Of a stretch of 64,000 nucleotides of DNA, positions 8,082 through 58,658 are shown piece by piece. Under the pieces are notes generated by a model. The model ran no database searches and was not told where the DNA came from. It saw nothing but the letters and a program-made list of their open reading frames with translations. The DNA lies in the NCBI GenBank assembly GCA_018062285.1, contig JAGOSO010000002.1, forward strand, positions 3,164-67,163, given 5' to 3'. Made by a program: the position numbers and the translations under genes. The first letter of the stretch is position 1, and each line of letters begins with the position of its first letter. This DNA is from Minisyncoccota bacterium (GTDB lineage: Bacteria > Patescibacteriota > Minisyncoccia > 2-02-FULL-40-12 > GWA2-44-9).

Positions 8082-8393
8082 TTAGTCCTGATGGGCGTCG
8101 GTGCCTGCCATGCGAAGACAGTCAGTTTCGGAATGCTTGGTCGTGCAAGTGCACGACCCGACGAACTCACACTTACCCATACCGAAGGGGCATCGTTCTC
8201 CGCCCTGTTCGGCCAACTCGACCCTGGTGTAACTGACGTGCGGCCCTTTGTGTTTGGGAACATCCACACGAGGGGTGAAACTCCCAAGCGCATGAAACAT
8301 GGCGAAGATGTCGGGACGAATCCCCTTCTCCGCTTCCATGATCTTGAGTGCCTCACGCCTATCCAGCTCGCGTTTGACTTGCCGACTTGCCAT
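8082..8393 (-). CDS. Hypothetical Cys-rich protein (approx. 103 aa) in a GC-rich cassette
   Basis: ORF MASRQVKRELDRREALKIMEAEKGIRPDIF...CPFGMGKCEFVGSCTCTT; GGAGG 7 nt upstream of the ATG; strongly GC-biased codons unlike the neighbours; own promoter and terminator. Confidence 0.55.
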   Translation of the reverse strand: MASRQVKRELDRREALKIMEAEKGIRPDIFAMFHALGSFTPRVDVPKHKGPHVSYTRVELAEQGGERCPFGMGKCEFVGSCTCTTKHSETDCLRMAGTDAHQD

Positions 8394-8450
8394 ATGCTTG
8401 CCTCCGAAGCATCTTTGTAGCGTTATAAGGGGCTGGGAACCCTCATAATA

Positions 8451-8479
8451 ACTATACACTCAATTCATGTGAGTGTCAA
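8451..8479 (-). promoter_or_regulatory. Sigma70-like promoter (TTGACA-17-TATAGT) for the 8082-8393 gene
   Basis: Minus-strand reading tctTTGACActcacatgaattgagtgTATAGT located about 60 nt upstream of the start. Confidence 0.5.
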
Positions 8480-8500
8480 AGACAAAAGTGGAGATTTAAA

Positions 8501-9379
8501 CTAGGCAGAAACGTAAGGACGGAGTTCTTTTTTGTGAGCTCTAGAACATTTAGTGCAAGCAATTACTTTTGTGGATGGTCGAGTAGAATCATCATTATAA
8601 AAATCTTCAGATGGTTTACCACAATATGAACAATGACCAACAATTTCTCGGTCTGGAGTATCTACGACTTCGGTGACAATACGATTATCAAAAACAAACA
8701 GTGAACCTTTGAAATGTTTATTGGGATACTTCTCCATGTAGGTATGGATGCCGTCTTTCAATTGATACAAATTATTGAATCCTTTTCCTTTCAAATAGCA
8801 GGTGGCTTTTTCGCAACGAATTCCGCCCGTGCAAACGGTTACGATCTTTTTGTTTTTTAATTCTTTAAGCTCTGGAAGCTTAGATGGTAAATCTCTAAAG
8901 TTTTTAAGCTTAGGATCAATCGTTCTTTCAAAACGACCAGCTTCAACTTCAAAATCATTTCTTAAATCTAGGACGACAAAATCCTTGTCTGTTTTGTATA
9001 GTTTTTCCAATTCTGCCGGAGTCAAAGCCTTGGCTGTGTCTTTTTTAATATTTAACTTGCCTACGCCAAGCGTAACCACTTCGGGTCGGATTTTAACTTG
9101 GAGTTTAGAAAAGGCATTACCAATACCAGCACTCTTTTTGAAAAGAATATCTTTGAATCGTGGCTGAGCATGTAGGACCCGCATGTATTTTTTAATATCT
9201 TCAGTCTTACCTTCTAGGGTTGAATTAATACCTTCTTCGGCAATCAAAAACCGCCCCTTAAGATTCAGGGATTCGCAAAGCGCTTTCTGGTCTTTCTTTA
9301 GTTTTTCAGGGTTTTTAATGCTGATAAACTTATAGAACAGGATAATTGTATATGGAGGGATGGCCTTCTTCATGGGCAT
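8501..9379 (-). CDS. trhO: Rhodanese-domain tRNA uridine(34) hydroxylase TrhO (YceA/UPF0176)
   Basis: UPF0176 N-terminal domain plus rhodanese active-site loop CTGGIRCEKA and a C-terminal Cys cluster. Confidence 0.75.
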   Translation of the reverse strand: MPMKKAIPPYTIILFYKFISIKNPEKLKKDQKALCESLNLKGRFLIAEEGINSTLEGKTEDIKKYMRVLHAQPRFKDILFKKSAGIGNAFSKLQVKIRPEVVTLGVGKLNIKKDTAKALTPAELEKLYKTDKDFVVLDLRNDFEVEAGRFERTIDPKLKNFRDLPSKLPELKELKNKKIVTVCTGGIRCEKATCYLKGKGFNNLYQLKDGIHTYMEKYPNKHFKGSLFVFDNRIVTEVVDTPDREIVGHCSYCGKPSEDFYNDDSTRPSTKVIACTKCSRAHKKELRPYVSA

Positions 9380-9381
9380 TA

Positions 9382-9678
9382 TTATACTATCTCTAGAACC
9401 TTTTGGCGAGACTCTCGGCCTGATTTAATTTTAATTTTAGCCTGAGGCACCTTAAGATGTTCGGCAACAACCCTAATCACCGCATCATTGGCTTTGCCAT
9501 CAACGGCAGGTTCTTTGACCCAAACATAATAAAAATCCATCAATATTTTGGTGTTACGAGTATTCATGGCCGGTTCTCCGGCTCTTTCAATGAATTCTTT
9601 TTTGGCCGAGGCCTTAACTTTTACTAAAATTTTCATTTTATTTAACAAATAACAGTAATGGCAATATGCCACCGGCAA
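9382..9678 (-). CDS. DUF167/YggU family protein
   Basis: ILVKVKASAKKE...KANDAVIRVVAEHLKVPQAKIKIKSGRESRQKVLEI matches the YggU pattern. Confidence 0.7.
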   Translation of the reverse strand: MPVAYCHYCYLLNKMKILVKVKASAKKEFIERAGEPAMNTRNTKILMDFYYVWVKEPAVDGKANDAVIRVVAEHLKVPQAKIKIKSGRESRQKVLEIV

Positions 9679-10123
9679 TAATCAGCGAGACAGGAAATAT
9701 GAACTTAATAATTTGTTCAGCGACTGTCTTTGGTTCGTAAATCAAATTTATTAAACTATAAACAAAAAGCAAAACAACCATTAGCGCAAAATAAGTTAAC
9801 GAGGCAAGAGTTGAAACCGGTGCCACCATTATTCCTACCGCATTAATGAAAGCCATATTACCAAAAATGTTAGTAACATACCCAAGATGATTCCAGAGCC
9901 GCACTTCTTTTTTGTAACCCGTCTTGGCATAGGCCAAACAAGACATAAAAAGCATCGGTACAGCCAGAGTCAATTGAGTGGTAACAATCAAGCTGTATTT
10001 AGCTTGATCTAAAAAAATAATAGTTAGTACCAAAACAAGGCTAGCAAGCATCACTCCATTAATAGCGACTCTCATGGCTGCTTTATCTGCGTTTGGTTTA
10101 TATAATTCAGCGGATTCAATCAT
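9638..10123 (-). CDS. Hypothetical integral membrane protein (4-5 TM)
   Basis: Hydrophobic 161-aa ORF; no recognisable motif. Confidence 0.4.
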   Translation of the reverse strand: MIESAELYKPNADKAAMRVAINGVMLASLVLVLTIIFLDQAKYSLIVTTQLTLAVPMLFMSCLAYAKTGYKKEVRLWNHLGYVTNIFGNMAFINAVGIMVAPVSTLASLTYFALMVVLLFVYSLINLIYEPKTVAEQIIKFIFPVSLIIAGGILPLLLFVK

Positions 10124-10133
10124 GTTATTTAAT

Positions 10134-10436
10134 TTAAGCTTTGGGTTTATCTAATTTATGCAAGCCGATTGCTTTGACCCCGAAATAAACGACAAAAGCG
10201 ATTACCAAAAAATCTATCACGACACTTAATAAATCACCGTACATAATTTGGGCTGAGCCAATTCCAAACGATGCATTCTTTAAACCACTGGTCGAACCAA
10301 GGGCCACACTCAATAGCGGATTAACAATATCCACGACTATTGCCGCGACAACCTTCGACACCGCACCTCCAAGGATAAAACCTACAGCCAACCCTACGAC
10401 GCCCTGTTCTCTTATAAAATCAATGAATCCCCTCAT
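10134..10436 (-). CDS. mscL: Large-conductance mechanosensitive channel MscL
   Basis: MRGFIDFIREQGVVGLAVGFILGGAVSKVV... canonical MscL N-terminus and TM1. Confidence 0.85.
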   Translation of the reverse strand: MRGFIDFIREQGVVGLAVGFILGGAVSKVVAAIVVDIVNPLLSVALGSTSGLKNASFGIGSAQIMYGDLLSVVIDFLVIAFVVYFGVKAIGLHKLDKPKA

Positions 10437-10499
10437 AGAATTTAAGTTAGTTTATTAAGCCCAGTATATCATTATTTTAAAATATGAATAATTAAAAAA

Positions 10500-10533
10500 G
10501 GCTGGTGATCGTGCCTTAGCACGATCACCAGCC
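10500..10533 (-). terminator. Rho-independent terminator (perfect 15-bp stem) of paralog 1; identical copy at 10997-11030 for paralog 2
   Basis: ggctggtgatcgtgc-cttag-cacgatcaccagcc followed on the minus strand by a T-run. Confidence 0.7.
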
Positions 10534-10547
10534 GTGACGCCGAGCTG

Positions 10548-10886
10548 CTACATCATCCAGGCCATGAAGAAATCCATGTACGAAAGATTGTTCACCAGCA
10601 CAGTCAAGCCGTCACACTTGTCGGCAAATGAATTGCCCATGAAGTCGTTCATCAGCCAGGCAGCGTACCGCTCCTCGCGGTCAGCCCCGTAGTAGTGACA
10701 GTTGTGCCCGTCGATCACGACGTCCGTTCTTCCGATCGCCCAAATAAGGCGGATGAGCGTCCCGTCCTGATCAACGAAAGCAATCTCTCCATCCGTGGAC
10801 GCCGCCTGCAGGGAGGAGGTGGCGATTGGGGCGGCCATGACCAGGGCCACCATCAGAGCAAGAACCAACTTTCTCAAACGTTTCAT
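10548..10886 (-). CDS. Small secreted Cys-containing protein, tandem paralog 1 (signal peptide; C-terminus ...FFMAWMM)
   Basis: MKRLRKLVLALMVALVMAAPIATSSLQAAS signal peptide; GC-rich; GAGGG SD; the tool's longer ORF to 11027 runs into the upstream promoter, so the start is placed at MKRLRK. Confidence 0.6.
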   Translation of the reverse strand: MKRLRKLVLALMVALVMAAPIATSSLQAASTDGEIAFVDQDGTLIRLIWAIGRTDVVIDGHNCHYYGADREERYAAWLMNDFMGNSFADKCDGLTVLVNNLSYMDFFMAWMM

Positions 10887-10941
10887 TTGCTTTCCCTCAC
10901 GAAAATACTGGGCCCAACCGGTAGGACTCAGTAGTTTCAAT

Positions 10942-10970
10942 ATTATAGCCGATAGACCCGAAATGGTCAA
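10942..10970 (-). promoter_or_regulatory. Sigma70 consensus-like promoter TTGACC-17-TATAAT for paralog 1
   Basis: Minus-strand TTGACCatttcgggtctatcggcTATAAT about 55 nt upstream of the ATG. Confidence 0.6.
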
Positions 10971-11046
10971 TTGTGGATTATTTTTAAGTATTAAAAAAGG
11001 CTGGTGATCGTGCCTTAGCACGATCACCAGCCGTGACGCCGAGCTG

Positions 11047-11370
11047 CTACATCATCCACCACCAGAAGTTCATGGCCTCGAGGTTGTCGATCATCAGGTT
11101 GATGTCATCGCACTTGTCGGCGAAGTCATTGCCGCGCAAGTCGTTCACCAGCCAGGCAGCATACCGCCAGGCTCTTTCCGGGCCGTAGTACTGGCACTGG
11201 ACGCCGTCAATGATCACAGCCTTTGACTGCTTGTAGATGACAACCAGACGCCCCTGATCATCGACGAAAGAGACCTCGTCGCTGGAGGCGCGAACGGTCG
11301 TGGTGGTGACTGTGCCGGCCATGAAAAGGGCCACCATCAGAGCAAGAACCAGCTTTCTCAGACGTTTCAT
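11047..11370 (-). CDS. Small secreted Cys-containing protein, tandem paralog 2 (C-terminus ...NFWWWMM)
   Basis: About 45% identical to paralog 1 with the same signal peptide MKRLRKLVLALMVALFMAG and conserved DGxxCxYYG...YAAWLxND...FADKCD core. Confidence 0.6.
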   Translation of the reverse strand: MKRLRKLVLALMVALFMAGTVTTTTVRASSDEVSFVDDQGRLVVIYKQSKAVIIDGVQCQYYGPERAWRYAAWLVNDLRGNDFADKCDDINLMIDNLEAMNFWWWMM

Positions 11371-11425
11371 TTGCTTTCCCTCACGAAAATACTGGGCCCA
11401 ACCGGTAGGACTCAGTAGCTTGTTT

Positions 11426-11454
11426 ATTATAGACCATAGCTAGAAAATAGTCAA
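11426..11454 (-). promoter_or_regulatory. Sigma70 consensus-like promoter TTGACT-17-TATAAT for paralog 2
   Basis: Minus-strand TTGACTattttctagctatggtcTATAAT at the equivalent position of the duplicated unit. Confidence 0.6.
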
Positions 11455-11508
11455 TAGGGGCCAATAATACAAAAATTAAAGGCCCTATTCTTTACTATTT
11501 AAAATAAA

Positions 11509-11751
11509 TTACCGATGAGGGCAGCCGGCCCAGCAACATGGACGACGCATTCCGCCCTTCATTTTTGAGATCGCTTTTTCGATACGAATATTTCTTGTCT
11601 CGGCTTTCTTGCCCGAAATCACCCAGCAAATCCATTCATTCTTAGCTAAGGGCGTAATGCTATTCCACAATGCCTGCACTCTCTCAATCGAACCAATCGC
11701 CTCTTTCAAGTCGCTTGGTAGTTTATGCGGTGTTTGTGTTTGGCTCGGCAT
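11509..11751 (-). CDS. YdeI/OmpD-associated (OmdA) family protein
   Basis: LKEAIGSIERVQALWNSITPLAKNEWICWVISGKKAETRNIRIEKAISKM matches the YdeI/OmdA pattern. Confidence 0.6.
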   Translation of the reverse strand: MPSQTQTPHKLPSDLKEAIGSIERVQALWNSITPLAKNEWICWVISGKKAETRNIRIEKAISKMKGGMRRPCCWAGCPHR

Positions 11752-11861
11752 AGCTGTGGAATTATTTAAATAATCTTATCATTTTTTACAGTAATTAAAG
11801 AGCCCGTGACGAGCCGTGAATAAAATCACGGACTCTTTCACGGGCTACGCCTCCAGCGGGC

Positions 11862-12014
11862 TTACGACAACAGCTTGTCGCGGACGAAGTAGTAGTAATA
11901 CTTCCCGCTATAGTAAAAAACAGTGACGAGCGTCCACCGCTCCTTGCCCAGTTCGTTCAACTGTTCAACTGATGCGGTGGGGGCGGTTGTTTCCAAAACC
12001 ATGTACTCTTTCAT
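11862..12014 (-). CDS. DUF4177-like small protein (50 aa; below the ORF-track cutoff)
   Basis: Translated by hand: MKEYMVLETTAPTASVEQLNELGKERWTLVTVFYYSGKYYYYFVRDKLLS. This fits the DUF4177 M-x-YK/M-V...G-W-x-LV pattern. GC-rich; hairpin agcccgtga...tcacgggct downstream. Confidence 0.45.
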   Translation of the reverse strand: MKEYMVLETTAPTASVEQLNELGKERWTLVTVFYYSGKYYYYFVRDKLLS

Positions 12015-12200
12015 CTGTTCCTCCTAGGGCCAGATACGGCCTCTGGTGATCGAAACGTTTCCTCTCTCGAGCGTACTATAAATATAGCACATTTAGTGCC
12101 ATAAGTCAAGTTTGGAATTGAGAGATGAAAAGAGGTTTAAAAATCAGCCCCTTCATATTACTTTCCATAAGTTTTTTCAACGGCTCAAGGGGTTGAGCCG

Positions 12201-12488
12201 TTAGATTTTTTCGTAGAAGACGGCGTTGCCGGTGGTGCCGACTTGGCGAATCTTGCCCTGCTTTTCCAGTTCATCCAAATACCTCGTCACCGTCGCATCC
12301 GACACCCCCAAAGCCTGCTGAACTTCATTATTGGTCACCCTCCCCGCCCCAACCATCACCAAAATCTTCTCCAAATTCTTTTTCTTTTCCTCAACCTGCT
12401 TCTCCCCAAAACCAACCCCCGTACCATTCCTCTTCCCAACCATATACCCAATCACCGCCCCAACAACTAAATAGATTATGTTAGACAT
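12201..12488 (-). CDS. Membrane-anchored winged-helix (HTH) DNA-binding protein
   Basis: MSNIIYLVVGAVIGYMVGK TM helix then VTNNEVQQALGVSDATVTRYLDELEKQGKIRQVG wHTH; GC-rich; the ORF-track start at 12581 lacks support, so the start is placed at MSNII. Confidence 0.5.
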   Translation of the reverse strand: MSNIIYLVVGAVIGYMVGKRNGTGVGFGEKQVEEKKKNLEKILVMVGAGRVTNNEVQQALGVSDATVTRYLDELEKQGKIRQVGTTGNAVFYEKI

Positions 12489-12710
12489 GGATTTTATTAA
12501 AATAGTTATCAACAGTTGGCAGTTAATGCCAGTCTCGTACAATGTGTGTGAGCAGTCAGTGACAGAGACTGCTAAGTACATTCTGACAGAACAATCATAG
12601 ACAAACGTAGTGTTGCTAGCAAATGCTGGCGAGAGGATTCGACTTACGTTCGATCGGTTTTGTTGTACTTCAGTTTAACAAAGTACTGTCTGTAAGTACT
12701 TCACAAACCG

Positions 12711-12917
12711 ATGCCCTATTACACTCGTAATACTGGTAAAGCATGGACTCCACAAGAAGAAATGCTTATGAGACTTTATGCTCGGCAGAACATGCCGACC
12801 AGAGTCATTGGGATGAAGCTGGGCCGCACAGAAAGTGCAGTCTACGCGAAAGCTTCAGAATTGAATCTTTCACTTCATCCAATAAACCAGTCCCCGTACA
12901 ATAGACTTCAAAAGTAA
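12711..12917 (+). CDS. Small HTH/Myb-SANT-like putative DNA-binding protein
   Basis: WTPQEEMLMRLYARQNMPTRVIGMKLGRTESAVYAKASEL; divergent from the 12201-12488 gene; followed by a terminator. Confidence 0.4.
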   Translation: MPYYTRNTGKAWTPQEEMLMRLYARQNMPTRVIGMKLGRTESAVYAKASELNLSLHPINQSPYNRLQK

Positions 12918-12919
12918 GT

Positions 12920-12952
12920 CTCTCGAACTCCGCCCACCAGGCGGAGTTCTTG
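12920..12952 (+). terminator. Rho-independent terminator
   Basis: gaactccgcc-cacc-aggcggagttc followed by ttgtg. Confidence 0.5.
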
Positions 12953-13077
12953 TGTAAATAGATGTTATCATTTTAAAGGTTCTGATCCAGATGCTTGTCC
13001 ACACTTGTGGCCACCTATTGATTTACCGATTACATACACAATTATGACACCAATGACTAAGTAGGTTGTGTCGATAA

Positions 13078-14019
13078 TTAGATCTCTTCCTTAAATTTAA
13101 TGTATGCCTGTTGAATTATGTATAAACCATACTCAAGTTCTTTTTCGTTTGAAATTTCAATTGACGAAATATGTTGATTGTAGTGTTTCATACTGTTTTC
13201 GTTGTAAAAAACTTTATGTTCTGGATCTTTAAAATCTTTTGGCTGAGCTCGAGTAAAATCGATTTTGAGCTTACTTCCAAGCACGTGACAGTATAAGACA
13301 TTTTTTAAGTTGCCTGGCAGCTGGAAAGAAATATAAGATTTTGTCGGATGCGGCATCAGACTGGAGTCAAGGGCAGAAAGCCTGTCTTTCATCTGTTCAT
13401 ATAACTTTTTACCCATTCCCGACGGCCGACTCTTTAAGTAATCTTCTTCAGAGTAAGTTCTTACTTGTCTGGAAACCTTCCGCACTTCACTATCTGTAAT
13501 ACCCAAACTCTCTATGGACGCTTTGGCTCCAGTCTTCTTGATCTGAGAATATTCAATGAGATCTCCTTCGTATCGTGTGACTTCCCACAATTCAATAGGT
13601 AGGTCTCTAAAATTAATTGCTTCAAGTTGGTAGGGAGTAAAAGATCTAGTCAAAAAAATGACCTTCATTTGAGACCAGTCGAAGTCAGACTTCCCCCTCT
13701 TCTCTTGAAATTTTTTATTAAATTCTAAAACAAATTCCGCTTGGTTGTTAAGTATTAGCGATAGATAGGCAAAGCCTTGGTCAATCACACTAAAACTTCT
13801 TTCTCTTTTATATTCAATGACCACGAAAGTATTCAGACTGGGATCGTATGCCAAAGTATCTATGCGCAGACCATTGTGTTGGAATTCAGTCGCAATAAAT
13901 TCTAAGCCAAATATTTCTTTAATATTTTTTTCGGTCAACTCCTGCAAGTCCTTCTCTAGCCTAAAGGGCGCTTCTCTTATTAAACCGATTTTTTCTTGTT
14001 GTTTTTTAAATAAAGACAT
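13078..14019 (-). CDS. PD-(D/E)xK nuclease-fold protein (NucS/DUF91-like N-terminal domain + uncharacterised C-terminal domain)
   Basis: GLRIDTLAYDPSLNTFVVIEYKRER reproduces the D...(D/E)xK NucS/DUF91 core (IDxLAxDxxGxxVVIExKR); immediately downstream of hsdR. Confidence 0.5.
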   Translation of the reverse strand: MSLFKKQQEKIGLIREAPFRLEKDLQELTEKNIKEIFGLEFIATEFQHNGLRIDTLAYDPSLNTFVVIEYKRERSFSVIDQGFAYLSLILNNQAEFVLEFNKKFQEKRGKSDFDWSQMKVIFLTRSFTPYQLEAINFRDLPIELWEVTRYEGDLIEYSQIKKTGAKASIESLGITDSEVRKVSRQVRTYSEEDYLKSRPSGMGKKLYEQMKDRLSALDSSLMPHPTKSYISFQLPGNLKNVLYCHVLGSKLKIDFTRAQPKDFKDPEHKVFYNENSMKHYNQHISSIEISNEKELEYGLYIIQQAYIKFKEEI

Positions 14020-14021
14020 AA

Positions 14022-16355
14022 TTATTTATATAACAGTTTTTGGAAGCCAAAGAAAATTGATCGAATTTCAATAACTTCACCGAGCTCTTGTTCTGCATTA
14101 GCAATGGCATGATATTTCAAATTCAAGAGTATTGGTAATTTATCTTCGCCCAATTCTTCAACGCCTTTTTCCTGATACTTAGCCAAAGCAAATTCAATGA
14201 AATCTCTCTGCTTTTCATTTAAGCCGTCGAGGATGTTGTACTTATTGTTTTGAATTCTCTCAACTCGACTTATTGGTTGTAAAGCAAAAGCGATGTAGCC
14301 AAGTACATCGAATAAGTCACTGTTCTCCGCATTAACTATTTTCTGTATAGATTCAAGTTGTTCCTTGCCGTAACCCATCTCACCTAGTTTTTCAAGCAAA
14401 GCTTTTCTAGTTTGGGGGTTTGACCATATCTCTCTTAGTTGCTTTTCGTCTTTAAATAGATCTGGCAACGCTCCGTAAAGACTATTCAAAAATTCTTCGG
14501 TTGATATTGGCTTACCATCCGCACTCCAAAACGAGGTTGAGATCATGTGCTGTATTTCTCTCTCTTTGCCATCTCGAAGCTTTATTTTTAGTTTCTCTGC
14601 TGGGGGTGGTGGAAGTACTTCACAAACACAAGGTCTCTGACCGCATACTTCACAAATTCGAGGTTCAGTTGGTGGCTTAGTCTCATCTTCGGTTGTTTGA
14701 TCAATTGGTTCTCCGTCCCACTCGGGATCTAGGAAGTGGTGATACGCGTCCACGAAATCTATAATTGTGAAATATTCTTTCCCATCAAACAATCTAGTAC
14801 CACGACCAATAATCTGCTTAAACTCAATCATCGAATTTACAGGCCTCATTAATACAATATTTCTTACATTGCGAGCATCGACACCAGTAGAAAGTTTTTG
14901 TGAAGTGGTAAGGATAGTTGGGATAGACTTTTCGTTATCTTGGAACTGACGAAGATATTCTTCGCCTAAAAATCCGTCATTGGCGGTAACTCGCACACAA
15001 TAATTTGGATCTGAACTTTTCTTGTGCTTGTTTATAAAATCACGAACAAGAAGCGCGTGACCTTGTGTAGCGCAAAATACGATGGTTTTTTCATTCTGGT
15101 TTATTTCATTCAGAAATACTTTTACTCGATTTTCTTCTCGTTCACGAATGTGGATGTTCCCTCGAGCAAAATCATCTTCTTTGTAAATCTTTCCTTCCTC
15201 AACCTCTCCCTCAACCACAGTGTCATCCGAAGTATAAATATATTCATCCAGCGTCGTTTTAATACGCTTTACTTTGAATGGTGTAAGGAATCCATCGTTA
15301 ATTCCTTCTTTGAGTGAATAGATATATACCGGCTCGCCAAAATATTTATAGGTATCTACGTTATCAATTCTTTTTGGCGTTGCAGTAAGACCAAGCTGTA
15401 CCGCAGAAGAAAAATATTCCAGAATACCTCTCCAGTTTGATTCGTCGTTTGCCCCGCCCCTGTGACACTCGTCAATGATTATTAAATCAAAGTAATCTTT
15501 TGGATATTCACCAAAGTAAGGAGTTTCATCTGGGCCACTCATGAAAGTTTGGAAGATGGCAAAGAAGATACTTCCATTCATTGGAACGCCACCCTTCTTG
15601 CGAATATCATTGGGCGTAATGCGAACCAGTGCATCCTCAGGAAAAGCGCTGAAAGCATTAAACGCTTGATCGGCTAAGATATTTCTATCTGCCAAGAAAA
15701 GAATTCGAGGCTGTCTCTTACCATCTCGACTGATATTCCATCTGCTCTGGAATAGTTTCCATGCGATTTGAAAAGCTATGAATGTTTTGCCCGTACCAGT
15801 TGCTAATGTAAGCAATACTCGAGGCTTCTCTTCTGCGACAGCATCCATCACTCGGTTAACTGCTATTTCTTGATAGTAACGAGCTGATTTACTACCATTA
15901 ACATCTTCGAATGCAACATCTGAAAACTTGTTCTTCCACTCATTCTGTTCAGAATAAATTTTATTAAATAATTCCTCTGGGGTTGGGAAAGTAATAACCG
16001 GCCCTTCGATACCATTCTTCATGTCTATCTCATGGATTTCGTGTCCATTGGTTGAATAAGAAAAAGCCACCTGAAGCTTACCGGCGTACGTTTTTGCTTG
16101 TTGTACACCTTCAGTAGGTGCTAGGGACTCTTTCTTTGCCTCAATTACGGCAAGTTTTCTGTTTTTATATACCAAGACATAATCAGCAATTTCCGGCTTT
16201 TGAGGTACGCCGCCCATTTCAATCTTTCCTGGAGATATACGAAATTCTCGATGGACTTTGGACCCTTCAATAACACCCCAGCCAGATTCCTTGAGTTTTG
16301 GATCTATATATTCAGCTCTAGTTTCGGATTCATTCATGTACTTGACATTATACAA
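14022..16355 (-). CDS. hsdR: Type I restriction enzyme R subunit HsdR
   Basis: N-terminal nuclease region, SF2 helicase motifs LTLATGTGKTFIAFQ (motif I) and IIIDECHRG (DEAH); 777 aa. Confidence 0.85.
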   Translation of the reverse strand: MYNVKYMNESETRAEYIDPKLKESGWGVIEGSKVHREFRISPGKIEMGGVPQKPEIADYVLVYKNRKLAVIEAKKESLAPTEGVQQAKTYAGKLQVAFSYSTNGHEIHEIDMKNGIEGPVITFPTPEELFNKIYSEQNEWKNKFSDVAFEDVNGSKSARYYQEIAVNRVMDAVAEEKPRVLLTLATGTGKTFIAFQIAWKLFQSRWNISRDGKRQPRILFLADRNILADQAFNAFSAFPEDALVRITPNDIRKKGGVPMNGSIFFAIFQTFMSGPDETPYFGEYPKDYFDLIIIDECHRGGANDESNWRGILEYFSSAVQLGLTATPKRIDNVDTYKYFGEPVYIYSLKEGINDGFLTPFKVKRIKTTLDEYIYTSDDTVVEGEVEEGKIYKEDDFARGNIHIREREENRVKVFLNEINQNEKTIVFCATQGHALLVRDFINKHKKSSDPNYCVRVTANDGFLGEEYLRQFQDNEKSIPTILTTSQKLSTGVDARNVRNIVLMRPVNSMIEFKQIIGRGTRLFDGKEYFTIIDFVDAYHHFLDPEWDGEPIDQTTEDETKPPTEPRICEVCGQRPCVCEVLPPPPAEKLKIKLRDGKEREIQHMISTSFWSADGKPISTEEFLNSLYGALPDLFKDEKQLREIWSNPQTRKALLEKLGEMGYGKEQLESIQKIVNAENSDLFDVLGYIAFALQPISRVERIQNNKYNILDGLNEKQRDFIEFALAKYQEKGVEELGEDKLPILLNLKYHAIANAEQELGEVIEIRSIFFGFQKLLYK

Positions 16356-16357
16356 TA

Positions 16358-17500
16358 TTATAGTCCATTTGAAAAGGCTTTGTCGAGTATGGATTTCTTT
16401 AATTCATCAATACTCTCAAGCTTTTGTTTGTAGAGGGACTCTAATTCCTGAGTCTTTTCAGAAAGCTGATCGAGTTTTTTAACAATTATTTTTTGTTGGA
16501 CTAGTGGAGAAATTGGAATTTCAATACTTTCAATTTGAGTCTTATTTATAGAATTAAATACCGCACCGGAATTTCCAATCAACTGATCTTCGAACATTTT
16601 AAAAAAATAAAAAAGAAAATCCCTATCAATTTCATCACCAACCCTAATAGCAGCTAAACCACGCCCAATACAAATTTTTTCAGTAGCAAAGTTTGTTGGT
16701 CCCACAGGTGCCCTGACTGACATTAAAATGTCTCCTTTTTCAGCTTCCTTTGTAACTTGAGTAGTCCAAACTGTTGGTTTTTTTAAAAAAATATCTCCAA
16801 AATCTTTTTTACCTTGATAGAAAGGTAACCCTTGACCTAATTTATTATAAAATTTACCTTCAGGTGATTGTCCTGCGATTACTTTACAAGTTTGACCTAT
16901 TTTTTTAACTTCCCAACTCTTACCTAGATTACAAAAAACATTATTTAAATAGGACTCAAAAAGCTCTTTTGAATTTTGCAAATTATTTTCCGTATTTTCT
17001 TTTGCTATTTCTAGATTTTTAAAAGTCTCATCGAGAATTTTTACAATTCTTTTTTGTTCTTGTAGAGATTCTGGAAAAGAAATCTGTATTTGCTTAAGGT
17101 TGTCATTATAAAGTCGAGAAATTGTAGCACCTTTAGTAGAATTCCAATCACAAACCTCGTAAAAGTAGTATAGATAGTCGTTTAATACTTGTTTTTCATC
17201 ATTATCAATCCATACAATATTTGAATCTTGAAAATATGCTGGCTTACCATCATACCTGACCCGTCTTCCAATTGTTCCAGATGCAGAAATAAGGATATCC
17301 CCTTTTTTGGGGAACGAAAATTTATTATGAAACTCGTTATATATTTCTTCAGAAATAAAGGCATCTGGTTCCTTACCAAAAGTTCCAATTTTATAAAATG
17401 GAATATCTCCAATTTTTTTCGTCTGGTCTTTAAATATCCTTTTACACATTGATATCTTACCAATATCTCCGAGTTTTTTTGTTTGCCAGTTAGTTTTCAT
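16358..17500 (-). CDS. hsdS: Type I restriction-modification specificity subunit HsdS (two target-recognition domains)
   Basis: Duplicated TRD architecture with conserved central and C-terminal coiled-coil spacer (LESLYKQKLESIDELKKSIL). Confidence 0.8.
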   Translation of the reverse strand: MKTNWQTKKLGDIGKISMCKRIFKDQTKKIGDIPFYKIGTFGKEPDAFISEEIYNEFHNKFSFPKKGDILISASGTIGRRVRYDGKPAYFQDSNIVWIDNDEKQVLNDYLYYFYEVCDWNSTKGATISRLYNDNLKQIQISFPESLQEQKRIVKILDETFKNLEIAKENTENNLQNSKELFESYLNNVFCNLGKSWEVKKIGQTCKVIAGQSPEGKFYNKLGQGLPFYQGKKDFGDIFLKKPTVWTTQVTKEAEKGDILMSVRAPVGPTNFATEKICIGRGLAAIRVGDEIDRDFLFYFFKMFEDQLIGNSGAVFNSINKTQIESIEIPISPLVQQKIIVKKLDQLSEKTQELESLYKQKLESIDELKKSILDKAFSNGL

Positions 17501-17502
17501 AA

Positions 17503-18924: not shown

Positions 18925-18928
18925 AGTT

Positions 18929-20446: not shown

Positions 20447-20531
20447 CCGGTTGAGCCGTTGCCCAAACCAAGCTTAGCCTTTCTCTTTTTATCGCTTGAA
20501 AGACACTCTGTAATACCCAAAAGGAGCGAGG

Positions 20532-20625: not shown

Positions 20626-20634
20626 TGAGCGATG

Positions 20635-21015: not shown

Positions 21016-21085
21016 CAGGAAATTTTAACATAAAAAAAAGATCCCCTCCGGCACGCATTGCGCACCGAAGGGGTAAGGGAAGGAA

Positions 21086-45999: not shown

Positions 46000-46031
46000 C
46001 TTGGGCAGAATATATCCACACCCAAAATAAA

Positions 46032-47173: not shown

Positions 47174-47175
47174 AT

Positions 47176-48288: not shown

Positions 48289-48369
48289 GTTTATGTGTTA
48301 CTTAAGAGTCTATTAGTATACCAGAAACTGGCCTAAATATCAAGGCCAGTTTTAAATACCAAAAATAAG

Positions 48370-49119
48370 CTAGTCCTTACTTCCTTTTGTAGATTCCGTC
48401 GAGTCGCAACGAGACTTAATGTCTTCTAAGAGATGCTCGGACAAACGAAATTCTGCATCTTTTTGCTTAACTGTATTTAAAATATCTTTGCAAAATTTAC
48501 CACGCACATCCTTACTGTCTTCCAATCTTTGAACCCGACCAAGAACTCCTTCCACCTCATTTTGAAAATCTTTATTCAAACGATCAATTCGTTTTTGATT
48601 ACTGATCGATGTATCTATTTTGACATGGTCCGCATCTTTTATTTCATTTTTTATTGGAGTTTCCTCAGGTTTATTTTTAACGACTGAACTAGGAGTGGGC
48701 TGAATAGATTCTTGTGGTGTGTTTTTGTGTTGCAAATTTTCATTTTCCAACTCAACCACTTCTTGTAAGCGCCGAGTAGCAAAAACACGGTGAAGCTCCA
48801 CTTGCTTAACTGGCGAACTTGCTTTCAATCTCACCTGCTCACTAACACGCTTAAAATCATAAAGAGGATGGGCCACAGAAACATCACTAACATCAGCAAA
48901 AACCGACAAACCCGTAACCATGGACAACGCAACCACAGCAAAAACTGTCGCGTACTTCATTAAATGATAATGCTTAATTACGCTGGCACTGTTTCTCTGC
49001 TGAGACATTAATACAAACTTTTCTTTAGTTGAATTCAAAAATGTTTTGTCTGGCTGAACATAAGAACGCAAACTACGTTTGAGTTTCCATATAGCTAATT
49101 GTTCTTTAATAAAATTCAT
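48370..49119 (-). CDS. Putative anti-sigma factor (single-TM, downstream of and translationally coupled to ECF sigma)
   Basis: ATGA overlap with sigma gene; TM helix VFAVVALSMVTGLSVFA; no enzymatic motif. Confidence 0.45.
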   Translation of the reverse strand: MNFIKEQLAIWKLKRSLRSYVQPDKTFLNSTKEKFVLMSQQRNSASVIKHYHLMKYATVFAVVALSMVTGLSVFADVSDVSVAHPLYDFKRVSEQVRLKASSPVKQVELHRVFATRRLQEVVELENENLQHKNTPQESIQPTPSSVVKNKPEETPIKNEIKDADHVKIDTSISNQKRIDRLNKDFQNEVEGVLGRVQRLEDSKDVRGKFCKDILNTVKQKDAEFRLSEHLLEDIKSRCDSTESTKGSKD

Positions 49120-49652
49120 TATTTTAAATACGGGATAAGCCTCTTACGCAAACGATGAATAGCCACACGTAAAGAAGACTCTGACTTACCTGTCACCTTT
49201 GCCAAATCTGCATAAGACATATCGGCAACAAAATGGTGTTCAAATAATTCTTGCTCCTCTTGTGAAAACTTTTCAACGATCTCCATTATTTCTCGAATCT
49301 TAGCCGTTCCATCTGAACTAGCTTTGTCTTCGGCAATATTTCCCCCTTCTTCTGGTAAGTCGGCAAGATATGAAGGTTTCTTTAAGCGAAAATAATCTAT
49401 TGCTGAATTTCTGGCAATCTGCCAAATCCATGCAGTAAAGTTTCCGGTTCCTCTATTGAATTGTTCGATACTTTTAACAACTTTTAAAAAAACTTCTTGA
49501 GTTAAATCTTGAGCAACTTCTTTGTGCCGAACCCTAGCCATAAAAAAAGCATAAATCGGTTTAGAAAAATGGTCAAATATTTTCCCCGCAGAAGCAGAAT
49601 CTCCTTTTTGGAGGGCCTCGGCTTCTTTGTTAAAAGAGTCTTTGGGCACCAT
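49119..49652 (-). CDS. ECF-type RNA polymerase sigma-70 factor
   Basis: Region 2 (DLTQEVFLKVVKSIEQF...AWIWQIARN) and region 4 HTH (DLAKVTGKSESSLRVAIHRLRKRL). Confidence 0.85.
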   Translation of the reverse strand: MVPKDSFNKEAEALQKGDSASAGKIFDHFSKPIYAFFMARVRHKEVAQDLTQEVFLKVVKSIEQFNRGTGNFTAWIWQIARNSAIDYFRLKKPSYLADLPEEGGNIAEDKASSDGTAKIREIMEIVEKFSQEEQELFEHHFVADMSYADLAKVTGKSESSLRVAIHRLRKRLIPYLK

Positions 49653-49811
49653 AGTATATACGTTTGGATGTGACCTATTGTTTCTCGCCTTCTAGCTTCT
49701 AGAATACCATGTTTTGCTTGATTTTTCAACACAAATACTCTCTGGCCCGGTTCCTGTTATCTCTAAAATACAAAATGCCCGCTCTTTCGATGGGGCATTT
49801 TGTATTTAATG

Positions 49812-49884
49812 GGGGGATAACGGGAATCGAACCCGTGACCGCGCTGCCACAGAGCGCTGTGATAACCGCTTCACCATATCCCCC
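49812..49884 (-). tRNA. tRNA-His (GTG) with genomically encoded G-1
   Basis: Hand-folded cloverleaf: acceptor ggggata/tatcccc with extra 5' G, D-stem gtga/tcac, anticodon loop cTGTGgc, T-arm acggg-ttcgatt-cccgt, discriminator C. Confidence 0.8.
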
Positions 49885-50006
49885 AATATTAACTACGGAC
49901 TTAATACGTCCTTCTATTATATCGTATTTTATTGCATAAATCCAGGGGTAAAGTTATCCATGCTTTACGTTTTGGCTTTTTTAACGTAGAATTCAATAGC
50001 TACGAT

Positions 50007-50081
50007 GCTCTCGTAGCTTAATGGATAAAGCAGGACTCTTCTAAGGTCTTGATGGGGGTTCGATTCCCTCCGGGAGCACCA
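50007..50081 (+). tRNA. tRNA-Arg (TCT), CCA encoded
   Basis: Acceptor gctctcg/cgggagc, D-arm gctt-aatggata-aagc, anticodon loop cttcTaa, T-loop ttcgatt, 3' acca. Confidence 0.8.
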
Positions 50082-50101
50082 GAGAGGCAATAGAGCAATA
50101 T

Positions 50102-50172
50102 CGGGCCGTTGTGTAACGGTAGCACGCATGATTTGGGATCATGTAGTCCGGGTTCAAATCCCGGCGGCCCGA
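50102..50172 (+). tRNA. tRNA-Pro (TGG)
   Basis: Acceptor cgggccg/cggcccg, anticodon stem catga/tcatg with loop ttTGGga, T-arm ccggg-ttcaaat-cccgg. Confidence 0.8.
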
Positions 50173-50180
50173 CAAGTTAG

Positions 50181-50214
50181 ATCTGAACGGCTCAAGTGGT
50201 TGAGCCGTTCAGAT
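50181..50214. repeat. Palindromic element copy 3 (atctGAACGGCTCAA-gtgg-TTGAGCCGTTCagat) between tRNA-Pro and tRNA-Gly
   Basis: 15-bp perfect inverted repeat; core shared with copies at 12179-12202 and 20437-20460. Confidence 0.7.
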
Positions 50215-50218
50215 TAAG

Positions 50219-50292
50219 GCGGGATTCGTATATCGGTAATACATGAGTTTTCCAAACTCAAGAGACGGGTTCGACTCCCGTATCCCGCTCCA
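50219..50292 (+). tRNA. tRNA-Gly (TCC), CCA encoded
   Basis: Acceptor gcgggat/atcccgc, anticodon stem tgagt/actca with loop ttTCCaa, T-arm acggg-ttcgact-cccgt, followed by terminator aaaaaacagg...ctgtttttt. Confidence 0.8.
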
Positions 50293-51977: not shown

Positions 51978-52979
51978 TTAGTTAGTTTGTAGCTTTTTAA
52001 ATACGATACTCGAGACCACAAACAATGAGAGTAGCCCAAAGATTAAAGCCGTGACAGAAGAACCACTGGAGGTTGGTCCCACTCCTGCGTTAGGAAGCTG
52101 CGGAATTGGCGTCACAGAAGGGGTTGGAGTACTAGGAGGTAATAATGCTGGCGTTGGGGTACTAGTCGGGAAAGGGGTTGAGTTTGGTGTCGGAGTTAAA
52201 GTTGCAACTGGTGTGGGTGTGAGACTTGGGATTGGGGTAGGAGTTGGTGTCGATGTTGGGATTGGGGTAGGAGTTGAAAGAATGCAAGAAGGTTTAGTTA
52301 TTGGACTAGTATCCAATGTGACCGCACCATTACGGGCAAAGACTCTACCATTCACAGAGGCGCCAGTCGTAGCCGTTATGGAGGTTAGAGCGACGAGGTT
52401 ACCAACGAAATTAGAATTTGTGCCTAAGGTCGCTGATGAAGCGACCTGCCAAAAAACATTACAAGCTTGAGCGCCATTAATCAAATTGATTCTACTCCCG
52501 CTCGACGTGGTCAAAGAAGAACCCACCTGAAAAATAAAGACAGCGTTCGGATTTCCTTGTCCATCAAGAGTCAAGGTGCCAGTGAGGCCTAAAGAAGAGT
52601 TTGAATTATAAACACCTGGCACCAAAGTTAAGCCACCCAAATCACCAGAAACTGTTGAGGTTGATGCTTGAGACGCAAGAGAATTATAAGCCGTAACAAT
52701 ATCTGTCATTGCCTGAGCCGCAGTAGCATCCGTTATGTGTTGAGTACCATTAACGATACCAGGCGGAAAACCCGTAACCGACGTACCTGGACTCAACCCC
52801 AGATCCCCATTCACTGTAGTTGAACCGGTATTTGTAATTGTAGACCCTCCAAGAACAGCAAAACTATCAGCGACACCCAAGCTAACTGTCGTGGCTGCAC
52901 CAGCCGTGAGGGATCCAAGTAAGCCTAGGCTAATAAGTGCTACAACCAATGCTAGTCCGACCTTTTTATGTTTCAACAT
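51978..52979 (-). CDS. Secreted DUF3494 (ice-binding-like) surface protein with Pro/Thr-rich stalk and LPNAG sortase-sorting signal
   Basis: Signal peptide; DUF3494 pattern ([14 protein letters not shown]...[11 protein letters not shown]...[14 protein letters not shown]); PTPxP repeats; C-terminal LPNAG + hydrophobic helix + KK. Confidence 0.7.
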
Positions 52980-54707: not shown

Positions 54708-54772
54708 AGCCCCACCAATATGGTGGGGCTTTGATTTTTGAATTACTCGGATCCGAGATTCAAAACTGAAGA

Positions 54773-55057
54773 CTACATGATAGCTTCTTTCAAAAGCTTA
54801 CCAGGAGTGAAGCGAGGCTTCTTAGAGGCTTTGATGTGGATCGTTTCGCCAGTGCGAGGATTGCGTCCTTCGCGAGCTTTGCGATCGGCGACCTTAAAGA
54901 TACCAAAACCAGTAATGTTGACCTTATCTCCTTTGCGCATAACCTTGGTGACTTCTTCTACGAAGGCATCAATCCATGCGATACCATCTTTCTTGGAAAC
55001 ACCCATGCGTTCAGCCAAGATCTGTGCTAACTGACTCTTTTTTACAGCATTTGCCAT
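54773..55057 (-). CDS. hup: DNA-binding protein HU
   Basis: MANAVKKSQLAQILAERMGVSKKDG...GFGIFKV..R.AREGRNPRTGE canonical HU/IHF fold signature. Confidence 0.9.
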   Translation of the reverse strand: MANAVKKSQLAQILAERMGVSKKDGIAWIDAFVEEVTKVMRKGDKVNITGFGIFKVADRKAREGRNPRTGETIHIKASKKPRFTPGKLLKEAIM

Positions 55058-57333: not shown

Positions 57334-57436
57334 TTGTTATTGGTAAAGTTAGAAAAACCATATTGGTACTTCTAGCTAATATTAAAGGAAATTTAACCCT
57401 ACTATACAGAAAAGGGCATCTTTAGGCAAACTCGAT

Positions 57437-57487
57437 GTCAACATAAATAAAAAGCTCCGGACAAGACCGAAGTCGGGTCAAACCCGG
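57437..57487 (-). terminator. Rho-independent terminator of the GC-rich two-gene islet
   Basis: gctccgg...ccggagc stem followed on the minus strand by tttttattt. Confidence 0.6.
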
Positions 57488-57513
57488 AGCTTCTAGTCTT
57501 GCACGGAGCGGCG

Positions 57514-57795
57514 TCAGCCGATCATGCCCCTCATGAGGTCGATAAGGCGATCGGCGCCAGATTGTTCATTGGAATGATCGCCCTGTTTTCCTTCGTCAGG
57601 AGCGGTCGCCATGGCATCAATAATGCTCAATGCTTCATGGCTAACTCCTTCTGGCAAATCAATGAGACAACTGCCATCACATGAGGTAACGACAAACTCG
57701 CCTTTGTTTCCAGTGGCGTGAATGTGCCAGTAAACACCTTTGGCCTTCGCGCACCAGACACCAACGCTTACCAACCGTCCTTTCAAACCAGACAT
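57514..57795 (-). CDS. Hypothetical protein (93 aa), GC-rich
   Basis: ATG start with AAAGGTG SD; MSGLKGRLVSVGVWCAKAKGVYWHIHATGNKGEFVVTSCDGSC... Confidence 0.4.
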   Translation of the reverse strand: MSGLKGRLVSVGVWCAKAKGVYWHIHATGNKGEFVVTSCDGSCLIDLPEGVSHEALSIIDAMATAPDEGKQGDHSNEQSGADRLIDLMRGMIG

Positions 57796-57811
57796 GACTA
57801 GACACCTTTCC

Positions 57812-58519
57812 TTAGGCCAAAGTTTCTGCTTTCAGACCACCCTTAGAGGACTGAAATTCTTCTTGGGCAGCAAGATCACGCTTCTTTGCGATCTCTTTGC
57901 AAACCCTCTTGCGCAAGGCTTCGATTTGCTCCCTTGAGCCCGACCGGCCACTGCCGGCAAACTCTTTGCAAAAACGAGACCAGTTTGATTCTACTTCTGC
58001 CGTCAGGTGCTTCATGGGCATATTGCAAAGAGCCTCGCCCCACAATTCCAAACCAACGAGATCAAGCACGTCACCATGATCTCTCATGGCCGAAGACAAG
58101 AAAGTCTCAAAGGCCATACTGGAACGCATATTGCTCAAGTCGGCACTGTTTGAAGTGGAAAGATTGGCCGCAATAGTGATCACGGACTTAGTCTGCAAAT
58201 TCGATGGCATGGAATAACGCACGCCGGTAGAAATCTTATTGGCAGACTCAAGGAGGGATGCAATCTCGGATTTCGCCTGGTCCATGAAATGCCGAGCATC
58301 CCAATCCAAAGCGAACACAAGCTGGACGTAATCACTACCTGTCCCCAACTGGTTGATCGCCATAACAAAGCGATCTCGGACAACATCAATCCTGTCTGCC
58401 GTAGAAAGAAACCAAGGCACCAAAATAAGTGCGGGCGCACCTTGGCCAGTCGTAACGGTGTAATCATGGGAGTGCTGAATTACCAAACGCTCCCGGGTAC
58501 CCTCTTCGTGTCTTCTCAT
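57812..58519 (-). CDS. Hypothetical protein (approx. 235 aa), GC-rich
   Basis: GGGAG SD before ATG (MRRHEEGTRERLVIQHSHDY...); the tool start at 58603 is a TTG with no SD. Confidence 0.4.
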   Translation of the reverse strand: MRRHEEGTRERLVIQHSHDYTVTTGQGAPALILVPWFLSTADRIDVVRDRFVMAINQLGTGSDYVQLVFALDWDARHFMDQAKSEIASLLESANKISTGVRYSMPSNLQTKSVITIAANLSTSNSADLSNMRSSMAFETFLSSAMRDHGDVLDLVGLELWGEALCNMPMKHLTAEVESNWSRFCKEFAGSGRSGSREQIEALRKRVCKEIAKKRDLAAQEEFQSSKGGLKAETLA

Positions 58520-58658
58520 TACTAACTCCCGACATCCACGCTCCAAGGCGCATCGTCTTAGGCCCCTATGGCCCAAAACTAGGATTTGCATATTATACAA
58601 CAAAAAGACTTTTCAGCAAAGGTTGGGTTGAGAGAGTTCAATCTGATATACTAATCAC

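Follow-up and report, generated by a model that had tools for sequence, protein, structure and literature searches.

GC-rich islets in an AT-rich Candidatus Yanofskybacteria chromosome as possible cassettes from a Candidate Phyla Radiation and phage gene pool

Very little is known about the hosts of Parcubacteria or their gene flow, and a chromosome in which small GC-rich islets interrupt an AT-rich backbone raises the question of where such islets come from; a host signature in them would have named the host. We analyzed a stretch of 64,000 nucleotides (the window, or WIN when compared with other loci) of contig JAGOSO010000002.1 (139,872 bp; GenBank assembly GCA_018062285.1), from a metagenome-assembled genome (MAG) of an uncultured Candidatus Yanofskybacteria bacterium (Parcubacteria, Candidate Phyla Radiation or CPR; locus tags KBC81_011xx–014xx). 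A sequence-only reading had marked eleven GC-rich stretches and proposed their repeated acquisition from a high-GC donor, for example an actinobacterial host. The islets are genuine protein-coding accessory genes of the Candidatus Yanofskybacteria chromosome; they carry no host signature and point to a private gene pool common to CPR bacteria and the phages of these bacteria, which would enter a very conserved backbone at a few slots, in the form of cassettes with transcription signals of their own. We favor, at an even chance, the reading that they are moron-like cassettes from a flexible gene pool of CPR bacteria and phages, turning over at fixed slots. No description of this GC-rich islet pattern in CPR genomes was found in the literature.

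Composition, coding status and transcription signals of the islets

The GC content of the window is 42.1%, with 51.5% in the eleven stretches pooled and 40.2% in the remainder. The mosaic is confirmed, as the standard deviation across 300-nt windows is 0.060, about twice the binomial expectation of 0.0285. GC content at third codon positions (GC3) is 0.360 ± 0.046 in the backbone genes (n = 45, maximum 0.433) and 0.50–0.79 in the islet genes (n = 18), corresponding to z-scores of 3.0–9.2 relative to the backbone. The GC-rich stretches are robust at 8082–8393, 10548–11370, 11862–12488, 21086–24729, 26384–26734, 29063–29893 and 39399–40865, and more moderate at 39022–39228 and 57514–58519. Two of the marked stretches (12711–12917 and 60180–60554) are weak, and part of a third (26151–26384) has a GC3 of merely 0.41. 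Three moderately GC-rich genes (11509–11751, 44273–44503 and 61700–62065; GC3 ~0.50 each) had not been listed. The islets and the remaining candidates are:

7992–8479, minus strand: islet 1, g006 (8082–8393/8459), a small Cys-rich protein; GC 0.567, GC3 0.61–0.64
10500–11454, minus strand: islet 2, tandem paralogues g011 (10548–10886; GC3 0.65) and g012 (11047–11370; GC3 0.79), small secreted proteins
11509–11751, minus strand: g013, OmdA/YdeI family (Pfam PF13376, E 1.8e-15); GC3 0.51, z 3.1
11862–12581, minus strand: islet 3, g014 (50 aa) and g015; GC3 0.71 and 0.61
12711–12917, plus strand: g016, a claimed islet that is compositionally not distinct; GC 0.44, GC3 0.42, z 1.3
21043–24729, minus strand: islet 4 (main block), seven small genes in the same orientation, g023–g029; GC 0.517, GC3 0.52–0.78
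26151–26772, plus strand: islet 5, a 77-aa membrane ORF (open reading frame; GC3 0.41) and g033 (26384–26734), then a terminator
28736–29933, minus strand: islet 6, a 73-aa ORF (28736–28957) and g037 (29063–29893)
39022–39228, minus strand: g051, a 68-aa basic protein; GC3 0.55
39299–40923, plus strand: islet 7, g053 (39399–40865, 488 aa); GC 0.561, GC3 0.66
44273–44503, minus strand: g056, a small Cys-containing ORF; GC3 0.51, z 3.1
57514–58603, minus strand: islet 8, g076 (57514–57795) and g077 (57812–58519/58603), upstream of the RNase Y gene; GC3 0.50 and 0.53
60180–60554, minus strand: g079, a claimed partial islet with a weak signal; GC3 0.416, z 1.2
61700–62065, minus strand: g081, an ORF of 121 aa flanked by the MnmA gene and g082; GC3 0.50, z 3.0, no Pfam match

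The GC content of the islet genes follows the pattern GC3 > GC1 > GC2, and the nonsynonymous/synonymous divergence ratio (dN/dS) between islet paralogues or orthologues is 0.19–0.44, which together indicate that the ORFs are real genes. Their codon usage is atypical as well. The codons CTG, CGG, GGG, CCC and ACG are almost unused in the ribosomal-protein genes and reach fractions of 0.18–0.37 in the islet genes (CTG 0.21 versus 0.02, CGG 0.18 versus 0, GGG 0.24 versus 0, CCC 0.37 versus 0). Translational selection was rejected as the cause of the high GC3, since the very codons favored in the islets are those shunned by the ribosomal-protein genes. The relative synonymous codon usage of the islets correlates with that of GC-rich sister lineages (r 0.52–0.65), versus an r of -0.03 with the window's own core. 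Islet proteins contain less Lys, Ile and Asn and more Arg, Gly, Cys and Trp, with a K/(K+R) of 0.43 versus 0.65. Pooled GC1/GC2/GC3 of the islets is 55.0/40.5/62.5, and regressions of the Muto–Osawa or Lawrence–Ochman type imply a source composition of roughly 46–56% GC.

Some other GC-rich patches have an ordinary cause, namely the tRNA cluster at 49811–50292, a Thr/Pro-rich linker at ~52000–52400 and part of the PIF1 helicase gene at ~6050–6500. Structured RNA genes were considered and rejected as a cause of GC-rich patches, as the Rfam and ARAGORN thresholds were reached by four tRNAs alone; the tRNA genes of the window lie solely at 49.8–50.3 kb, and permissive scans of 20.4–26.4 kb and 54.6–55.9 kb gave chance or terminator matches alone.

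It had been proposed that almost every islet protein is uncharacterized and that many islets have their own consensus promoter and terminator. Both statements hold, the second at the level of pattern-scan predictions. For g006 we predict a promoter at 8479–8451 (11/12 consensus positions) and a terminator at 8023–7992 (14-bp hairpin), and g011 and g012 each have a promoter (11/12) and a terminator (15-bp hairpin) of their own. The match is complete for g053, with an extended promoter TTGACA-17-TGnTATAAT at 39299–39327 (12/12 plus TG) and a terminator at 40903–40923; the predicted hairpins of these four genes measure 8–15 bp. The predicted promoter of g037 lies at 29933–29906 (10/12). Strong terminators are predicted after g023, g024, g028 and g033, and terminators are repeated within the seven-gene block.

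Pfam matches were obtained for three of the ~20 islet proteins: the OmdA/YdeI family protein g013, g015, which combines a transmembrane segment with a winged helix-turn-helix domain (HTH_24, E 8e-8), and g033, a single-domain response-regulator receiver (PF00072, E 1e-20) with a GC3 of 0.70. The product of g037 (GC3 0.60) is a membrane protein with C-terminal zinc ribbons. No islet protein had an NCBIfam match above threshold, and none of the nine scanned with PADLOC matched a defence family; with PHROGs negative for the ten tested as well, a prophage or defence identity of the islet proteins was rejected. Surface, regulatory or phage-interaction roles for the islet products are our guess.

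Three pairs of paralogues exist among the islet genes, g011/g012 and, within the main block, g024/g026 and g027/g028. The products of g011 and g012 share 55% amino-acid identity (dN/dS 0.44) and are diverged in the middle. Over 10491–11460, the 69-nt 3' ends with the terminators are 100% identical and the 159-nt 5' parts 86% identical. Such a pattern may reflect conversion between the ends of the two genes or a mature domain that has diversified.

In g053 and its orthologues an internal lipobox-like motif, LPLTAAAC, follows the N-terminal helices, and 12 beta strands are predicted in the C-terminal half of g053 (low-confidence AF2 model). One orthologue has a faint Gcw_chp match. A barrel-like surface protein, if that is what the model depicts, would be unexpected in a CPR cell, which is presumed to be monoderm.

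Islet genes in related genomes

We scored presence and absence by tblastn in 80 related loci anchored on MreB; homologue loci (Logan, GTDB or metagenome contigs) were labelled L001–L144. The MreB-anchored relatives among GTDB genomes are nearly all Candidatus Yanofskybacteria or other Parcubacteria. The backbone order is kept in these loci (GT gene g030, MreB, g035, the S9-L13-L17-RpoA-S4-S11-S13-IF1 cluster, g046). No counterpart of g023–g029, g036, g037, g051 or g053 was found in any of the 80 loci. Genes g011–g015 are absent from the syntenic sites, with no homologue of g011 or g012 in the 80 loci, and none of the 56 loci with S9 has g037 downstream of rpsI. At the other end of the window, two metagenome loci anchored on PGM, L092 and L093, keep the order RNase Y-PGM-MnmA, L093 continuing through g082–g083. 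Both loci, and L095, lack g076 and g077. In L093 the PGM and MnmA genes abut, leaving out g079, and MnmA and g082 are adjacent, leaving out g081.

Absence from the syntenic site thus holds for the block at 21–24.7 kb, g011–g015, g037, g079 and g081, and supports the view that many islets are insertions; to this extent the proposed repeated acquisition stands. It does not extend to g053, g051 and g033, which have positional orthologues, and g077, although missing from the three loci named, has an orthologue in L118. A weak positional homologue of g006 occurs in L003 (E 1e-4).

The families of g053, g051, g077, g033 and g024-like genes occupy the same slot in other Yanofskybacteria, where they are again GC-rich and far more diverged than their neighbors; synonymous divergence exceeds 1 between lineages that share such slot-conserved families. 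Among 5.8 billion proteins g053 has four homologue clusters, all in Yanofskybacteria contigs and at the same slot. Its orthologue lies between the AlaRS and UvrD-like genes in L083, L084–L086 and L087–L088, and beside AlaRS in the short contig L143. GC3 of g053 is 0.66 in WIN, 0.71 in L083 (backbone 0.33), 0.75 in L084 (0.55), 0.58 in L087 (0.30) and 0.57 in L143, where the flank beside it has a GC content of 0.39; dN/dS between orthologues is 0.19. The g051 orthologue in L083 shows 42% identity and a GC3 of 0.54 against a backbone of 0.33. A single relative of g077 (P0031) was found among 1.84 billion representative proteins; its gene lies directly upstream of RNase Y in L118 and shows 35% identity, compared to 81% for RNase Y, with a GC3 of 0.555 versus 0.296. 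Positional orthologues of g033 occur in L004 (36% identity, GC3 0.44 versus 0.33) and L005 (44% identity, GC3 0.56).

The g024/g026 family has nine homologues outside the window, all in CPR-like metagenome contigs. A g024-like gene in L144 (51–55% identity, GC3 0.64) is adjacent to a YgjP orthologue that is 91% identical, with g023 missing between the two. In L091 the family forms an islet (GC3 0.80 versus 0.38), in the GC-rich CPR-like contigs L089 (0.71 versus ~0.60–0.66) and L119 (0.60 versus 0.58) it is at local composition, and in L120 it is nearly ameliorated (0.45 versus 0.35–0.41). Relatives of the family are present in 22 IMG/VR contigs, and the AF2 model of g024 (pLDDT 86), which has no match in the PDB, matches three phage proteins only. 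Distant relatives of g023 and g029 are found on Variovorax and Leptospira plasmids. Viral-contig scans gave no match for the g053, g027/g028, g011/g012 and g029 families, and tblastn against plasmids and phages gave none for g037, g053, g027 and g077. The homologues recovered for the g053, g077, g024/g026, g023 and g029 families thus lie in CPR, phage or plasmid contexts, and the closest homologues of the searched islets, at 27–58% identity, are in CPR-like or viral contigs. Most homologues are on very short contigs, which are typical of strain-variable loci.

The GC3 of the relatives' backbones varies widely (~0.57–0.63 in L003, ~0.33 in L004, up to 0.76 in others), and sister Yanofskybacteria at 0.6–0.76 show that a GC-rich source exists inside the clade. 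The excess of accessory over backbone GC3 shrinks with increasing GC3 of the backbone (r -0.39).

The related loci span genome-wide GC3 values of 0.22–0.76, and MreB (26790–27791) has 95% protein identity to L003, yet a GC3 of 0.38 versus 0.63. Such values suggest fast compositional shifts within the clade. Other AT-rich relatives have GC-rich orphan genes of their own (e.g., L087 9286–11937 and L091 787–1911), and two of them, with GC3 of 0.70 and 0.65, flank the g053 orthologue in L087. At least one GC-rich orphan ORF is present in about 20 of the 68 loci surveyed.

Islets cluster in a variable region beside defence genes, for which the relevant features are:

9679–24785, no strand: 15-kb variable region, a mosaic of GC-rich, backbone-like and AT-rich segments
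13078–21015, minus strand: defence cluster of PDC-S18 (g017), hsdR, hsdS, an AAA_15/AAA_21 ATPase gene, hsdM and a YgjP-like gene (g022), from Pfam and PADLOC
20578–20610 and 26003–26035, no strand: 33-nt perfect direct repeat with an imperfect continuation of ~45 nt

In L003 and L004, the closest GTDB relatives (MreB 95% and 93% identical), the GT gene g030 is found ~0.5–0.8 kb from g008 (order GT-x-g008), which identifies 9.7–24.8 kb of the window as a 15-kb variable region. It contains an MscL gene, g011–g015, PDC-S18, a type I restriction-modification (R-M) operon with an inserted AAA ATPase gene, the YgjP-like gene and the seven-gene block. Recognized defence genes (PDC-S18, type I hsdR/S/M and the AAA_15/21 ATPase) cluster at 13078–20446, as in a defence island; g017 (13078–14019), directly downstream of hsdR, belongs to the PADLOC candidate family PDC-S18 (E 5e-94). 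No counterpart of g017–g021 was found in the 80 related loci, where g022 had a single match (45%).

The housekeeping and R-M genes had been described as uniformly AT-rich. Conserved genes are indeed never GC-rich in the window, but for R-M the description is inexact: hsdS and the ATPase gene inserted in the operon (16358–18924) have a GC content of 0.30 and a GC3 of 0.21 and form the strongest AT-rich outlier. Being an outlier of a sign opposite to the islets, this segment suggests a separate acquisition.

The 33-nt repeat copies lie upstream of hsdM and upstream of the GT gene g030, and bracket g022, the seven-gene block and the GT gene. No Rfam match was found in 20400–26400, which holds both copies. 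The first copy is precisely where the Logan contig L001 stops.

A palindromic hairpin, AACGGCTCAA-N4-TTGAGCCGTT, occurs in three copies: at an islet boundary (12178–12202), at the start of hsdM (20436–20460) and between tRNA-Pro and tRNA-Gly (50185–50209). At 54738–55057 the longest ORF (plus strand, 98 aa) is spurious and the real gene is that of a minus-strand HU/IHF-type protein (54773–55057), with 86% nucleotide identity to L092; the conserved-looking 'ORF' at 54738–55034 was discarded as the antisense of this HU gene.

Origin and persistence of the islets

In the reading that we favor, an islet would be a small, largely self-contained transcription unit, placed in a gap between conserved AT-rich operons, in which one to seven short genes stand between a sigma-70-type promoter and a hairpin terminator. 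Such units may be drawn from a flexible gene pool of Parcubacteria and mobile elements (phages, plasmid-like replicons), whose composition (equivalent to ~46–56% GC) would fit GC-richer members of the clade and not Actinobacteria. At a limited number of inter-operon slots, of which the 15-kb variable region with the type I R-M/PDC-S18 cluster would be the busiest, cassettes would come and go, undergo tandem duplication and give way to divergent homologues, the last probably via recombination in conserved flanks. Turnover would be fast enough for cassettes to keep the composition of the pool rather than drift to that of the host.

The divergence between WIN and its closest relative at the g053 slot, L083, bears on this turnover. 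Synonymous divergence (dS) of the flanking genes is 1.0–2.7, and identity at four-fold sites is 0.42–0.59 versus ~0.33 at saturation; deeper relatives are saturated. If relaxation is of the F81 type, about half of the compositional excess should have disappeared from each lineage since the WIN–L083 split, and a single acquisition of g053 before that split would need an ancestral GC3 of ~0.96–1.09. The choice is between repeated replacement of the cassettes and something that holds their GC content up.

Replacement at the scale of genes does occur next to g053. The UvrD-like genes of L083 and L087 are 84–93% identical over most of their length (77% in the last 100-residue window, 87% overall), and the WIN gene is ~70% identical to that of L083, and ~72% to all others in the comparison of the whole locus. 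AlaRS of WIN and L083 is 90–98% identical throughout (93% overall), and Obg is 96% identical over the first 200 residues. The discordant UvrD-like gene next to g053 and the homogenized ends of g011/g012 may be signs of recombination in the GC-rich genes. Across 37253–45505 the backbone genes show conflicting relationships to L083, L084 and L087, with Dus of WIN as an outlier, and whole-gene replacement among Yanofskybacteria lineages therefore reaches core genes too. The direction of transfer, the mechanism of replacement and the rate argument are inferred.

Several observations weigh against turnover of cassettes from such a pool. The exhaustive homologue searches covered the g053, g024/g026 and g077 families, so some islets only, and no donor genome with a near-identical cassette was found. 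g053 is GC-richer than the backbone in all five lineages, including the GC-rich L084, which is not a simple regression to a pool mean, and its tree, ((WIN,L083),(L084,L087)), with a dS of 1.86, is compatible with plain vertical descent. None of the ten islet proteins tested against PHROGs matched. The window yielded no integrase or transposase, no attachment site next to a tRNA gene and no clean duplication of a target, and recombination between such diverged flanks should be rare. The 33-nt direct repeat, which also encloses the backbone GT gene, does not provide a hallmark of mobility. Integron-like cassettes were rejected, as no integrase was found and most spacers in the block (16–130 bp) were judged too short for attC.

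A possible alternative, to which we assign clearly less than an even chance, is that the islet genes descend vertically, that their proteins evolve fast and that the genes are held GC-rich in place by a gene-specific process, which could be GC-biased gene conversion (gBGC) at hot spots of recombination or selection in favor of coding sequence rich in GC and rare codons. The positional orthologues of g053, g051, g077, g033 and g024-like genes are GC-enriched in every lineage examined, as this alternative would have it. The flank divergence of WIN and L083 and the ancestral GC3 that a single earlier acquisition would need also favor it, as does the excess of g053 over even the GC-rich L084 backbone. 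The flanks of g053 are discordant, so that a recombination breakpoint lies at or near this gene, and gBGC has been reported to raise GC content independently of codon optimality (PMC4450053). On the other hand, fast evolution elsewhere goes without GC-richness: g062, with 39% identity to its L083 orthologue, has a GC3 of 0.32. The GC3 excess of 0.2–0.4 is, to our knowledge, much above the effects of gBGC in bacteria. Relatives simply lack most of the islets, the g024 family is at local composition in GC-rich genomes and nearly ameliorated in L120, and the amino-acid composition is shifted too, as foreign origin predicts. In its narrower form, in which g053, g051, g077, g033 and g024-like genes are kept at a GC3 of 0.55–0.8 at fixed slots, beyond synonymous turnover, by a gene-specific GC-raising process, we consider the proposal rather doubtful. 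Near-identical contig copies with which substitutions might be polarized were identical or differed by one base in 9.3 kb.

Much would follow from the answer. In lineages whose synonymous sites have turned over, some islet orthologues are GC-rich still; if this persistence does not come from repeated replacement, it challenges the amelioration logic behind composition-based calls of horizontal gene transfer (HGT), and would make an unusually strong case for local GC-favoring forces in bacteria. Were the GC content raised in place, the islets would not be scars of HGT, and composition-based HGT detection would mislead in CPR genomes. A by-product of the comparison is that genome-wide GC3 differs by 0.25 between relatives with 95% identical MreB.

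Repeated acquisition from a high-GC donor outside the CPR, such as the actinobacterial host of an epibiotic CPR cell, is very improbable, and for the families tested this model is largely refuted. In its favor, the islets are GC-rich with foreign codon usage and are often absent from relatives, and host-associated Saccharibacteria have acquired a functional gene system (PMC8764695). The sole match linked to an actinobacterium is a weak one, between g029 and a phosphatase of an Arthrobacter phage (26% identity, E 8e-4). The searches of 5.8 billion and 1.84 billion proteins gave no actinobacterial or other high-GC-phylum homologue for the g053, g024/g026 and g077 families, and the contexts recovered are all CPR-like, phage or plasmid. 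Composition argues against such a donor as well: typical actinobacterial GC3 is ~0.85 or more, well above the 0.50–0.79 of the islets, for which sister Yanofskybacteria provide a match. Families transferred from Actinobacteria should be absent from related CPR genomes, and g053, g051, g077, g033 and g024-like genes are present there at the same slots. For at least four to five families the closest homologues are found only in low-GC CPR genomes and are similarly GC-rich there, the pattern that the sequence-only reading itself had set against its proposal.

An assembly or binning chimera, in which GC-rich pieces of co-occurring organisms were spliced into an AT-rich contig, is scarcely credible in spite of the MAG source, the mostly short homologue contigs and the Logan contig that breaks at the 33-nt repeat, given that promoters and terminators fall at islet boundaries, that no conserved gene within the window is GC-rich, that the combination of an AT-rich backbone and a GC-rich gene is seen again in other, independent samples and assemblies (L083, L087, L091, L118, L143 and L144), and that two Logan contigs (run SRR11088367, different assembler) match 20585–25339 and 32099–49847 at 100% across backbone-islet-backbone junctions, which are therefore not an artefact of one assembly. 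The seven-gene block at 21043–24729 is confirmed by L001.

Comparison with known systems

Acquired genomic islets of atypical composition are one of the closest frames for these loci, and Lawrence and Ochman are said to have given the classical amelioration framework for them. The present islets are likewise gene-scale segments with deviant GC content and codon usage, patchy among relatives, with mostly hypothetical products, and they cluster in a variable region beside defence genes. They differ in being GC-richer than their host, whereas accessory genes are usually AT-richer, and in that no integrase, tRNA or attachment-site hallmarks were found in them. Several are still GC-rich at the same slot across a dS above 1, where simple amelioration predicts otherwise.

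Compared to defence islands and hot spots, the largest islets flank the type I R-M/PDC-S18 cluster within a stretch of 15 kb that the closest relatives lack. In contrast, none of the nine islet proteins scanned is a PADLOC defence protein, and the other islets stand singly between housekeeping operons.

Lateral gain of accessory genes by a reduced CPR genome has a precedent in mammal-associated Saccharibacteria, which acquired an arginine deiminase system (PMC8764695). Here, no homologue of the families searched was found in a candidate host phylum, and the apparent pool is that of CPR bacteria and phages.

Lassalle et al. (2015; PMC4450053) report that gBGC raises the GC content of recombining bacterial genes irrespective of codon optimality. 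The GC3 of the islets is similarly raised independently of codon optimality, as they favor codons that ribosomal-protein genes avoid, and the genes sit where recombination is evident. The islets differ in how large the excess is (+0.2 to +0.4 GC3) and in that it is confined to a few small genes, and we know of no gBGC described so far that reaches this far.

Lambdoid phage 'morons', reportedly described by Juhala, Hendrix and colleagues, are autonomous promoter-gene-terminator cassettes. The flanks of the islets differ from those of morons in being bacterial housekeeping operons (ribosomal-protein, AlaRS, MreB and RNase Y genes) and not prophage genes, and no PHROG matches among the islet proteins tested or phage structural genes in the window were found. 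The islets resemble morons in consisting of one or a few genes with a predicted sigma-70-type promoter and intrinsic terminator, placed between conserved genes and deviant in composition, and the g024/g026 family has relatives in phages.

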